The notes: generated from the letters alone by a model not told the origin. A DNA stretch of 64,000 nt from an uncultured Thermoplasmatales archaeon (GCA_963807965.1 CAWEDU010000007.1:25865-89864); one strand, 5' to 3'. Numbered from the stretch's first letter, positions 4,700 through 8,071 are shown. Program-made: numbers and translations.

Positions 4700-4812
4700 A
4701 CCCAACTTCTTTTAAATAATAAGAGTGACTTAGTCCCTTGAACTATAGCTATGCTCTGGAGACGTAAGATTCATTGACTCCATTGCAGATGTTCTTTGAA
4801 CGAGGTGTTCAA

Positions 4813-5757
4813 ATGCTTAGGATGTGTAGAGAACATGGTTTCTTCAGAGGTGAGGAGTGTCCTATTTGCGGGGATGAGGGCAAATTCCTCATGAGCTCAT
4901 ACGAGCTGGAATCGCTTGGCAGGATCATGGCAGGGATATTAAGACATTTTCCAGACAGGTTCAACCTGGATATGGATGAGGAAGGTTTTATCGACATCTA
5001 CAAGATGGTCTCAGCTGTAAAAAGGAAGAGAGGTGACAGAATGAGGTGGCTCAGACCAACCCATATCATTGGACTGGTCGAGACCGATCCCAAAGGAAGG
5101 TATCAGGTTGACAACAATCATGTTAGAGCTACTTATGGCCATTCCCTTCATCTTTCAATGAGCCTCCCTACTGATGATATTCCCGAGAGATTATATTTCC
5201 CAACCAAACCCGAAGAACAGGAAGGAGTTCTGGAAAAGGGTCTGACCCCGGAGGACAGGACAATGGTCCACCTTTCCAAAACATGGGACGATGCATATGA
5301 AGCGGGAACTCACAGGGAAGGACCGGACCCCATAGTGCTAAGAATCAATGCAGAGGAGGCTCTCAATAATGGAATAATCATTCAAAGGGCCGGAAAGACT
5401 GTATTCACCGTAGAGGAGATCCCTCCCGAGTTCATATCCCTAGCTGACGAGGAAGATATGGAGATCTCCAGAAAGGAAATAGAAGAAAGAATGAAGGATA
5501 TCTATTACCAGGGACCTGGATCTGACAAGAAGAAGAAAGAGGAAGTGGAGGAATCAGAAGATATCGACCAAATCCCCGGGGATGATGAAGGGGATCCTGA
5601 AGAGGATGATAGTGATATCGAAATCAATGATGAACCTTCAGATGAGGATCTGGTCGACAAGCAAGGTGAGGAAGATGATGATTCCGAACTGGATGTCGAA
5701 GAGGATGACCTGACAGATGATATCCTCAAGATGAAGGATGACGTTTCTGACAAATGA
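4813..5757 (+). CDS. kptA: RNA 2'-phosphotransferase (Tpt1/KptA) with N-terminal Zn ribbon and long acidic tail
   Basis: CREHGFFRGEECPIC, ILRHFP, KGRY, RATYGHS and VHLS motifs; GAGGTG RBS before the ATG at 4813. Confidence 0.9.
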   Translation: MLRMCREHGFFRGEECPICGDEGKFLMSSYELESLGRIMAGILRHFPDRFNLDMDEEGFIDIYKMVSAVKRKRGDRMRWLRPTHIIGLVETDPKGRYQVDNNHVRATYGHSLHLSMSLPTDDIPERLYFPTKPEEQEGVLEKGLTPEDRTMVHLSKTWDDAYEAGTHREGPDPIVLRINAEEALNNGIIIQRAGKTVFTVEEIPPEFISLADEEDMEISRKEIEERMKDIYYQGPGSDKKKKEEVEESEDIDQIPGDDEGDPEEDDSDIEINDEPSDEDLVDKQGEEDDDSELDVEEDDLTDDILKMKDDVSDK

Positions 5758-5846
5758 AGATCCTATTTGAAAAGCTCATAAACGGTTAAATATGACCTTA
5801 AGATTAGGCCTACTTCCGGACAATGTCCGGTAAAGACCAACAGGCT

Positions 5847-5955
5847 GCAGAGGTAGCTCAGCCCGGTAAGGCGCGAGACTGGAAAAGACTTCGCTGTCAT
5901 CCGGACATCTCGTGGGAGTAATCCCTCGGGGGTTCAAATCCCCTCCTCTGCGCCA
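5847..5955 (+). tRNA. tRNA-Ser(GGA) with a 22-nt BHB intron (5885-5906) at 37/38 and encoded CCA
   Basis: Acceptor GCAGAGG/CCTCTGC, G discriminator plus CCA; anticodon stem CGAGA/TCTCG with loop CT-GGA-A[intron]A; long variable arm GGGA-GTAA-TCCC; T-loop TTCAAAT. BHB central helix CTGG/CCGG with AAA and ACA bulges. Confidence 0.95.
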
Positions 5956-6534
5956 TTCTTTCACCCTTTACACGAACGCAGAGAGAGTAATGGGTGCTAA
6001 TGACTTGAGGGGATTTGAACCCCGTAGGGTCCTGAGGCCACGGGACATTTACAACACGGGAGTGGTCTCAGGGTGAGCAAAATTTCCCATTTTGTGGAAG
6101 TTCAAATCCCCTCCTCTGCGCCATTCTTTCACCCTTTACACGAACGCAGAGAGAGTAATGGGTGCTAATGACTTGAGGGGATTTGAACCCCGTAGGGTCC
6201 TGAGGCCACGGGACATTTACAACACGGGAGTGGTCTCAGGGTGAGCAAAATTTCCCATTTTGTGGAAGTTCAAATCCCCTCCTCTGCGCCATTCTTCTCT
6301 CGTCAATTTCAAATAAACCGGAAGAATGACGCATGATATTGATAAGAAACGATGAAAAATGATGATATGTTGCAAATTATCGTTTTTCATCTCAGGGTTA
6401 GAATCTGGTTGAACGTCAATGACCTGACGATTCTTACCCTCCCCTCCTCTGCGCCATTCTTTCACCCTTTACACGAACGTAGAGAGGGTAATGGGTGCTA
6501 ATGACTTGAGGGGGTTTGAACCCCGGAGGGTCCT
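5932..6534. repeat. tRNA-3'-end-linked repeat array: two identical 168-bp units (5932-6099, 6100-6267), a third tRNA 3'-end copy (6268-6296), a unique segment, and a diverged partial unit (6440-6534)
   Basis: GTTCAAATCCCCTCCTCTGCGCCATTCTT at 5932, 6100 and 6268; TCCCCTCCTCTGCGCCATTCTT at 6440. Inverted GAGGGGATTTGAAC at 6007 and 6175, with a variant near 6508. Confidence 0.93.
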
Positions 6535-6643
6535 AAATCAAATTGATTTCAAAAAAACTAACAGCCAACTGGCTTTCACCAATCATATCGCAAATTATTT
6601 ATCAAGAGTAGGGTACTCAATTCAAATTCCCGGGTGGAGCATC

Positions 6644-8071
6644 ATGGCCGTTTCTGCAGCATCCGAAAGACTGGAAAGAGTCGAAAGATTCCTCGATAAG
6701 GTTGACAATGTCAAATCCCCAGGGGATCTTCAGGAGCCCTTCAAATCCTTATGGCTTAGGATACATGGTGAAAAACCTACCCTGATGTCAGAGGAGAGGA
6801 AGGAAGCTTTGATATCAGGTGGTCTGAAAGGAGGGATATTCGAAGATGTCCAGATATCTTCAGGTCCTTCCCCTAAGAATGTCAAGGGGTCCATTGAGGT
6901 CATCTCACCCAAACAGGTAGGACCAACAGTTGAAATGGAGGTCGAGGAGGAGGAGAAGGTCACATTCAAGATGGCAAAGGGAGACGACCTCAAGAATATG
7001 GAGTCCAAAGAAGGGGCTGCAAACGAGATGATAACCCTTCAAGGTTCTGTTAAAACCCTTTCGGGTCTGGGTGGAGAGGTTGCCAAGGTCTGGGAAGGTA
7101 TCCGAGACGTTGCTCAGGACTACAGAGATGGGAATTACATAAAGGCCCTTGATCTTGGAAAGAGCTTAGGGAATTTCCTTGGAACAGAAAAGTTCAAGAG
7201 ATCCGTGATGTCCGAACTTCAGAATAAACTAGCTGAATACCAGGAGCTTGGTGGCGATACCACAAAGGCCAAAGAGAGGTTCAAGGACCTTGCCTCTTCA
7301 TTTAAAGAAGATCGACCCGATTTCATTCAGATCGCGGGTGAGATCAACACCCTTGCTGAGGATAGTATTAAGGGGATAATTGAAGAGGAGATAGTTGCCG
7401 AGGTGAAAGCTTTACCAAAGAAAGAAGAACCGGTAAAAGAGAAAACCTCTGAGCTAAAAAGAACTCTAAAGAAGAAACCTGTCCAGCAACTTCCAAAGGA
7501 GATTGAGAAGCCCGTTCCGGAAGAAGGAGAGAAGGAACCTGATCCTGAAGAAGATATGAAAGAAGAAGAGAAACCTGTTATCAAGATCGTGACCGTCAAG
7601 AAACTGGTCCCTGTCCAGAAAGTGATGAAGCAGAGAATGGAAATGCGGCAGGAAATGGAAGACAAGACCAAAGAGGATGGATCTTCAGGAGACGTCATAG
7701 AACTTGATGAGTCATATAAAGTGTCCGAGGAAAAGGAAATAATCAAAGAGAAGGACCCAAAGACCAAAGGAAAAAAACAGAAGGGAGCAGAAAAACAGAA
7801 CGTTACATCGAAGGAGAAGGATACTAAAAAAGAAATTTCAGACAAGGCCCCTGACATACAAGACCCTTCTCCGGAAGAGATCCAATCCGCTTTCAAAAAA
7901 TACCAGTTTGTCTACAATGCCAGTATCAAGCTTAATGAGAAAGGAAAAGACATGTCCCAGATCTTCGACCTCATGCACTATGCGGAACAGGTAAGACAGA
8001 AAGGGAACATGAAGACCTATATCGGCGTCTGTGATCAGATGGAGAACATGTTGATCAAGTCACAGGGATGA
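6644..8071 (+). CDS. Hypothetical highly charged (Glu/Lys-rich) helical protein
   Basis: Long ORF; GGTGGAG RBS precedes the ATG at 6644 (the track start at 6491 lies inside the repeat). Confidence 0.75.
   Translation: MAVSAASERLERVERFLDKVDNVKSPGDLQEPFKSLWLRIHGEKPTLMSEERKEALISGGLKGGIFEDVQISSGPSPKNVKGSIEVISPKQVGPTVEMEVEEEEKVTFKMAKGDDLKNMESKEGAANEMITLQGSVKTLSGLGGEVAKVWEGIRDVAQDYRDGNYIKALDLGKSLGNFLGTEKFKRSVMSELQNKLAEYQELGGDTTKAKERFKDLASSFKEDRPDFIQIAGEINTLAEDSIKGIIEEEIVAEVKALPKKEEPVKEKTSELKRTLKKKPVQQLPKEIEKPVPEEGEKEPDPEEDMKEEEKPVIKIVTVKKLVPVQKVMKQRMEMRQEMEDKTKEDGSSGDVIELDESYKVSEEKEIIKEKDPKTKGKKQKGAEKQNVTSKEKDTKKEISDKAPDIQDPSPEEIQSAFKKYQFVYNASIKLNEKGKDMSQIFDLMHYAEQVRQKGNMKTYIGVCDQMENMLIKSQG

Follow-up and report, generated by a model that had tools for sequence, protein, structure and literature searches.

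Short structured units closed by tRNA 3'-end copies form tandem arrays behind tRNA genes in an uncultivated Thermoplasmatales lineage

We analysed a window of 64,000 nucleotides (C7:25865-89864), meaning the whole stretch of DNA under study, taken from an assembly of 3.05 Mb in 22 contigs that is 83% complete (G000). Concerning its lineage, 16 of the 17 loci with exact motif matches were found in uncultivated MAGs of Thermoplasmatota or Thermoplasmatales. A tRNA-Ser(GGA) gene with an encoded CCA lies on the plus strand at 5847-5955 and contains a 22-nt intron at about 5885-5906 (ARAGORN i(39,22)). The gene was recognized by the Rfam tRNA model (RF00005; 41.2 bits, E 1e-06, at 5847-5952) and by ARAGORN with intron search (-i), which called tRNA-Ser(gga) with its 22-nt intron at C7 31711-31819, corresponding to 5847-5955 of the window; default ARAGORN, run without intron search, missed it in the window. 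Upstream of the tRNA and outside the array, a gene for a Tpt1/KptA-type RNA 2'-phosphotransferase is found on the same strand (4774-5757; PF01885, E 3.2e-23). This gene sits directly 5' of the intron-bearing tRNA, and the C-terminal tail of its product is long, acidic, and repeat-rich. The downstream border of the array is a conserved plus-strand gene of unassigned function (6644-8071), taken from the ORF list with its start context aligned by eye at orthologous loci; no Pfam family matched its product. The mechanical ORF runs from 6491 to 8071 and begins within the last unit of the array, while conservation in the relatives starts at the ATG at 6644, so gene prediction may place its start too far upstream, inside the array.

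Between these two borders, the order is tRNA, A, A, B, A', where the letters stand for module families described below and all units are on the plus strand. Direct repeats equal to the 3' part of the tRNA bound the units, and the proximal tRNA is intact. The repeat is 29 nt long and comprises the T-loop, the 3' T-stem, the acceptor 3' strand, the discriminator, CCA, and five flank bases. Its first copy is within the tRNA (5932-5960), and copies start at 5932, 6100, 6268 (100%), and 6433 (83%), with spacings of 168, 168, and 165. A 21-mer made of the 3' T-stem strand, the acceptor strand, CCA, and the five flank bases is exact at 5940, 6108, 6276, and 6441 and did not occur in any of 100 shuffles of the window. 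The tRNA-Ser 3' end recurs from the T-loop on at 6100 and 6268, and from the 3' T-stem strand on at 6441. Tandem Repeats Finder reported a period of 168 with 2.2 copies and 100% matches over 5932-6296, and a third copy of the 168-nt unit, at 67%, is present at 6433-6600.

Unit 1 is a module A (5956-6123), assigned from a match to the covariance model R1 at 6004-6123 (112.3 bits) and from structure and covariation. It consists of a left hairpin (about 5962-5997), an anti-T-loop segment (6007-6029), hairpin b (6031-6072), hairpin c (6077-6095), and a tRNA 3'-end copy (6100-6123). Unit 2 (6124-6291; anti-T segment 6175-6197, tRNA-end copy 6268-6291) is a second module A, 100% identical to unit 1 in the assembly. 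Unit 3 is a module B (6292-6456; nhmmer match 6290-6453, E 1.9e-37), in which hairpin 0 pairs the preceding tRNA-end copy and its flank with their complement (6286-6332) and is followed by hairpin 1 (about 6350-6392), hairpin 2 (about 6395-6439), and a tRNA-end copy (6441-6456). Unit 4, or A', is a truncated older copy of the left part of A (6457-6534; 95% versus unit 1 over 78 nt, after which the likeness breaks off); it retains the left hairpin and the anti-T segment (6508-6530) and lacks hairpins b and c as well as the terminal tRNA copy. Thus, the four recurrences of the tRNA end, the identity of the first two units, and the diverged partial nature of the fourth, all reported in a first-pass annotation of this DNA, were recovered; the third segment, described there as unrelated but of similar length, does differ from A but is itself a member of a repeated family. 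No gene is present in the 165-168 nt of the units. As they carry neither a gene nor an integrase, they can at most be non-autonomous derivatives of tRNA-targeting elements. The motif CGTCAAT recurs in the loops of hairpins 0 and 2 in most copies of B (window 6304-6311 and 6419-6425) and might serve as a site of protein binding or nicking.

The two A units are identical over 168 nt, which exceeds typical short reads. Moreover, no Logan contig spans the two-A repeat, the two-copy count being that of the assembly alone, and a sister species (G020) has a single A at its tRNA-Ser(GGA) locus. These points would fit an assembly echo, with the second A unit spurious and the remaining array real. We consider such an echo unlikely, since modules of one kind often stand in tandem behind other tRNAs and in further assemblies, as at tRNA-Gly(ccc), tRNA-Leu(gag) (three units), and tRNA-Ala(tgc) (four units).

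The body of unit 1 has copies of 75-81% elsewhere in the genome, tens of bases behind different tRNAs and on the same strand. We looked for copies of tRNA ends around the 44 tRNAs called by ARAGORN. A direct downstream copy of their own last 14 nt (at most one mismatch) was present for 25 of them, mostly at +100 to +200 and often repeated two or three times, 115-200 nt apart; upstream copies were found for only two of the 44, and inverted copies for two. Three module families could be told apart, the commonest units being 100-200 nt long. Family A is composed of the left hairpin, a T-loop complement, the long hairpin b, the short hairpin c, GGAA, and then the tRNA sequence from the T-loop on. 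Family B starts with hairpin 0, formed by the preceding tRNA tail and flank with their complement and having an AT-rich loop, followed by two hairpins and the tRNA sequence from the 3' T-stem on. Family C holds a complement of the acceptor 3' strand, an A-rich hairpin, and then the tRNA tail. The length of the repeat depends on the module, with 24-29, 16-21, and about 14 nt.

Profiles of the three families gave 50 nhmmer matches in the genome. Within 1200 nt downstream and on the same strand, 24 of 42 tRNAs have an A, B, or C module (three B units, for example, behind tRNA-Leu(gag)), and none of the 42 has one upstream; when modules and tail copies are combined, 28 of 42 tRNA genes are followed by one or the other. 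Eleven of the 50 matches are located more than 1200 nt from any called tRNA. Four of these lie deep in long arrays (on C13 and in a tRNA-Met array on C14), two are weak opposite-strand matches over B modules, and five are at four orphan loci, where an Rfam search found no tRNA and which adjoin solitary tRNA-end fragments. A separate pattern was seen at the other end of the gene: seven of the 44 tRNAs, among them tRNA-Ser(gct) on C6, tRNA-Pro(cgg) on C14, and tRNA-Leu(gag) on C9, are preceded 135-676 nt upstream by one or two direct repeats of their own first 16 nt, and no such copy lies downstream. These upstream copies mirror the 3'-end copies and suggest a second set of units that uses the tRNA 5' end.

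To follow module A in other genomes, we used the covariance model R1 built for it. R1 matched 21 places in the genome studied here, all 23 other genomes of the family (1-24 matches each), both genomes of the sister family and, weakly, four further genomes of the class, giving 30 of 37 genomes in the class. In an even sample of the phylum, 22 of 151 genomes were matched, all but one inside the class. Among 86 matches in DNA from eight genera, 78 lie no more than 1200 nt downstream of a tRNA on the same strand, and about 20 isoacceptors are involved. A metagenome scan returned 10 loci, four of them with a real A according to the model. The exact A, B, and C motifs had no match among the viral contigs of IMG/VR; hence no free donor form is known.

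Since the downstream gene is conserved, orthologous tRNA-Ser(GGA) loci can be compared. The order is tRNA, A, A, B, A' in G000, tRNA, A, B, A' in G020, and tRNA, B, A' in G023, so that related genomes are polymorphic for the presence or absence of units at the repeats. The truncated unit 4 is present in all three. The other 13 loci, from other genera, have 0-2 repeats and other sets of modules. Distal units are shared and decayed, and tRNA-proximal units are variable and identical; the oldest units are therefore those farthest from the tRNA, an order that is predicted by insertion at a tRNA-proximal site. As a separate observation, the encoded CCA of the tRNA and the T-run behind it (window 5953-5960; compared at loci L033-L048) depend on the adjacent unit: A-type and B-type units open with CCA and a T-run, and the tRNA-Ser(GGA) genes of G022 and G003 are without CCA. 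A tree built from the central portion of A, outside the tRNA-derived sequence, required 21 changes of genus label against a shuffled mean of 37.7 and 39 changes of tRNA label against 53 when shuffled, in a poorly resolved topology (77 columns; 38 of 64 inner branches open). As far as such a tree can tell, this suggests both inheritance at the locus and spread or homogenization between loci within a lineage.

Next to sequence, the folds of the modules are conserved. We derived consensus structures from alignments of 32 copies of A (with RNAalifold) and 26 copies of B. Module A has three helices, in which 94.5% of cells are paired versus 80.6% in shuffles, and 18 of the 28 pairs show changes on both sides; none of 500 shuffles was as good, and slid controls were only 32-54% paired. 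Its closing helix, formed by the anti-T-loop segment and the tRNA-end copy, changes along with the variant of the T-loop (UA 13, CG 14). On the tRNA-sense strand, G·T or T·G wobbles outnumber A·C or C·A mismatches by 40 to 9, across all three helices. This lopsided wobble indicates that the tRNA-sense strand is the one on which the fold of A is under selection, whether in the form of RNA or of single-stranded DNA. In module B, 89.3% of cells are paired versus 68.6% when shuffled, with double changes in 25 of 27 pairs, and the tail complement covaries with the local tRNA (GC 13, AU 6); B has no strand asymmetry (25 vs 26). In the window, unit A folds at -60.2 kcal/mol (z -2.9) and unit B at -48.1 kcal/mol (z -3.9). 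Since the folded minus strand of A is almost as stable, energy alone cannot pick the strand. In the fold of the window's A, a GCAGAGA stretch is paired to the acceptor 3' strand while GCCA stays unpaired, as in the top half of a tRNA. No Rfam family matched the units, and nothing was matched by the covariance model of the RtT RNA (RF00391) at E values of up to 1 in 5000-7500. We also considered the 23-nt T-arm complementarity at 6007-6029 as a locus-specific antisense copy and rejected it: past the T-loop, the segment forms a small hairpin that every A unit retains, which leaves only about 14 nt of tRNA origin.

Units with cargo are found at the same kind of repeats. On C13 (G000:C13:36172-56171, minus strand), one tRNA-end 13-mer occurs seven times where 0.16 are expected; the copies are 0.2-5.4 kb apart and the array reaches the contig end. 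Its cassettes encode two AbiEi/AbiEii pairs, a DUF2202 protein, and several proteins that matched no family, and the GC content of C13 is 41.6% versus about 45% elsewhere. The tRNA-Met array (G000:C14:104700-124699) has at least nine units over 20 kb, with MNT/HepT and AbiE genes as cargo and a 16-kb unit coding for a protein of 2427 aa that has RHS repeats as well as PKD and GLUG domains; its cargo units were also seen to have a common conserved left end (ATTCTTGACGA...). The tRNA-Pro(cgg) array carries Fic and an AAA ATPase. Searches of 10 unnamed cargo proteins against PHROGs and NCBIfam revealed no recombinase, and the right ends of cargo-bearing units are mostly without well-kept hairpins. 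In the tRNA-Met array, the final base of the repeat (C or T) goes with the right-hand unit. Whether CCA follows a tRNA is likewise set by the right-hand unit. This indicates that each unit brings its own copy of the repeat end, which fits a crossover inside a shared site and not a target-site duplication.

We then searched for enzymes. In agreement with the first-pass annotation, which saw no integrase or cas gene in the window, contig C7 has no PF00589 integrase and no Cas1. The 83% complete genome as a whole gave no Cas1, no Y1 transposase, no reverse transcriptase, and no TnpB over the cut-off. It has three IS110-family transposase genes (G000 C2:276-758, C18:818-1300, and C1:175838-176320; two at contig starts), none of which adjoins a tRNA module, and a host Xer-type recombinase on C3. 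Four PF00589 matches were obtained in the genome, three of them at contig ends. One of these is truncated by the C4 contig end; it is a member of a 242-aa tyrosine recombinase family that is associated with modules in two relatives: in G014 the gene is directly behind tRNA-Ser(gct) and two B units, and in G018 it is behind tRNA-Val(gac) and an A-like module, where the element starts with a first hairpin of the same kind as that of B. The two proteins are 60% identical, and both contigs stop just after the integrase, so that the far ends of the elements fall outside. At the four other integrase loci there is no tRNA and no A, B, or C module; the copy in G022, like the one in the genome studied here, is cut by a contig end. 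This integrase family is found in 7 of the 37 class genomes, all in the present family, versus 30 of 37 for module A; a patchy distribution is expected of a mobile gene. From sequence, the mover of the units could be the 242-aa integrase, the host Xer-type recombinase, or another enzyme. Aside from this, the end of C9 (G000:C9:428500-430700) has a tyrosine recombinase in a 399-aa frame. The DNA there is AT-rich and does not resemble the remaining genome, which could mean a foreign element or else a binning or assembly chimera, the contamination estimate being 4.8%.

The reading that we favour, with about even confidence, is that the units are non-autonomous mini-elements which site-specific recombination accumulates at tRNA 3' ends. 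We infer recombination as the route of insertion, with hairpins that would serve recombination or maintenance instead of a cellular RNA function. Each unit would hold its own copy of the tRNA 3' segment, and a donor or circular form would have a single att-like site between conserved hairpins. Recombination within the shared segment would place the unit beside the tRNA, and the left end of the unit would supply the new tRNA tail (here CCA and the T-run), leaving the tRNA intact, with the previous tail and all older units displaced outward. The recombinase would act in trans, the 242-aa tyrosine integrase family being the candidate. This reading draws on units bounded by tRNA ends, on their differing number between sister species, on repeats in common with cargo islands, and on the integrase present in two relatives. 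An att-site graveyard of mini-elements, as proposed in the first-pass annotation, comes close to it as far as stacked att sites are concerned, but the word graveyard undersells conserved structured families that follow most tRNAs. Several observations speak against mini-elements. The covariation of the hairpins and the G·T excess in A are marks of a functional RNA and not of double-stranded att arms, and the antisense segments in A, B, and C are unexplained by classical attP anatomy. Moreover, the integrase is far less widespread than module A, and IMG/VR has no match, C7 no recombinase, and the window no coding unit. Among the short Logan contigs at this locus, neither an excised circle nor an empty site was observed.

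A possible but rather doubtful alternative is that the units are functional structured RNAs of tRNA loci, each ending at a tRNA-like 3' tail before the T-run. Their transcription would start either together with that of the tRNA or at a TATA-like AT-rich loop within the unit (from its sequence, that of B could be a promoter), and they might act in processing, termination, as decoys, or in regulation. The arrays would then gain and lose units when tRNA-end copies recombine unequally, and the cargo islands would have no relation to the units beyond using the same tRNA att sites. The covariation and sense-strand wobble in the three helices of A, the pairing and double changes of B, the antisense segments that covary with the local tRNA in both, the resemblance of the window's A to a tRNA top half with GCCA free, and the occurrence of A in every other genome of the family are what an RNA would lead one to expect. 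Contigs from RNA libraries cover 5825-5978, which takes in the tRNA and 23 nt, and those of a relative span the A/B junction at 6182-6332, but their presence in such libraries does not prove transcription. On the other hand, the number and type of units vary between sister species, with none at some orthologues, which would be odd for a needed RNA; B lacks strand asymmetry, and the units have no Rfam family. Furthermore, T-runs come right after most tRNA ends. T-runs stop archaeal transcription and should therefore limit read-through. For the release of co-transcribed RNAs at CCA marks, which the first-pass annotation offered as its other explanation, the G·T excess in A counts in favour, but the RNA evidence is weak and a T-run follows each CCA. 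The DNA and RNA readings may also both hold, as selection could favour a mobile unit whose fold does no harm, or is of use, once transcribed.

The asymmetry of A would also fit folding of one DNA strand, and a quite improbable reading builds on this. According to it, a folded single strand rebuilds the image of a double-stranded target, or the antisense segment guides the unit to a tRNA gene, and a recombinase then inserts the unit at any matching tRNA. All module types pair a tRNA-derived segment with its complement as the closing or first helix, and the layout of repeat, body or cargo, inverse segment, hairpins, and repeat mirrors integron cassette arrays. In addition, one integrase family is found behind arrays at two tRNAs (Ser-gct and Val-gac), and hairpin b signatures are common to different tRNAs within a genus. 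Against it, cargo units mostly lack well-kept right-end hairpins, the IS110-type genes are not beside modules, and the antisense segments of B and C are tRNA-specific, so that a switch of tRNA would need re-templating, for which we know of no mechanism. In its broadest form, and as a speculation with little probability, this archaeal order would use nearly every tRNA gene as an integron-like platform, with cassettes, both small ones and larger ones that bring defence and toxin genes, captured at the tRNA tail via attachment sites that fold as single strands. In these sites the tRNA-end copy would pair with a built-in antisense copy and so rebuild the target, which would then be chosen by nucleic-acid pairing and not by protein-DNA contacts alone.

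Finally, casposons insert at tRNA 3' ends with duplications, and direct repeats of the local target do flank short non-coding units with terminal inverted complementarity, but a MITE-like or casposon-like origin, in which a transposase or casposase cuts tRNA 3' ends with a long stagger and the repeats are target-site duplications, is very improbable given a repeat length that depends on the module, a terminal repeat base that moves with the right-hand unit, and an 83% complete genome with no Cas1, Y1 transposase, or over-cut-off TnpB.

If the mini-elements are indeed mobile, they would build many small gene-capture sites without harm to tRNA genes and would explain why defence and toxin-antitoxin genes gather behind archaeal tRNAs. 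The minimal units, about 150 nt long and without a gene, would expose the bare recombination apparatus of a compact, possibly pairing-guided system of site-specific insertion. If instead the units are RNAs, they would represent a new kind of structured RNA that is linked to tRNAs and found behind most of them in a whole archaeal family. Under either reading, annotation pipelines miss the units, and the units break assemblies at tRNA loci.

We compared the arrays with known systems; a search of openly available full texts returned no description of the modules. In archaea, elements integrated at tRNA genes are associated with "gene capture". Site-specific accretion is described for the integrase-less cis-mobilizable elements of streptococcal ICEs and for ssrA-linked islands of Dehalococcoides (PMC5704250, PMC3146451). 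The likeness to elements integrated or accreted at tRNA genes includes direct repeats that copy the tRNA 3' part, a restored proximal tRNA, tandem stacking, some units with cargo and without an integrase, and an integrase-bearing unit in some genomes. Features of cis-mobilizable elements found here are att-like repeats on both sides, the lack of an integrase, and tandem arrangement with elements at the same site; the small integrase behind arrays in G014 and G018 would be a candidate for the cognate enzyme. Unlike such elements, the commonest units here are 100-200 nt long with conserved hairpins only, belong to at least three structured families, follow most tRNA genes, and embed a tRNA antisense segment.

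The RtT repeats are tandem units of ~170-180 nt directly behind a tRNA, every one of which ends with tRNA 3'-end sequence, and in this they resemble the arrays described here. They differ in being confined to a single locus, whereas the units studied here lie behind 28 of 42 tRNAs, fall into several families, include cargo units, and do not match RF00391. The function of the RtT repeats of E. coli tyrT/tyrV (Rfam RF00391; rttR, tpr) is described as unsettled (10.1101/2024.07.17.603846).

Integron cassettes and attC sites have in common with our arrays that units are joined at a short core, that units end in an imperfect inverted repeat that may fold on one strand, that empty and cargo units coexist, and that the cargo is rich in toxin-antitoxin genes. 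In contrast to integrons, there is no IntI beside the array and no attI with a promoter, a Tpt1-type gene being upstream of the tRNA; the core is the local tRNA tail and not GTTRRRY, and there are about 28 platforms per genome versus one. CRISPR arrays are similar in their short repeat, regular spacing, and a fixed end alongside. Here, however, the repeat is a tRNA fragment, the intervening segments are repeated structured families, and no cas1 was found in the 83% complete genome, so the repeat/spacer logic once suggested for this locus does not hold. The combination of gene-less structured units of ~150 nt, several families, tRNA antisense segments, and occupation of most tRNA genes across a family is present in none of the compared systems. 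Altogether, the nearest kinds are tRNA-gene elements and their accreted derivatives, the nearest single-locus look-alike is RtT, and the nearest in logic are integron cassettes.
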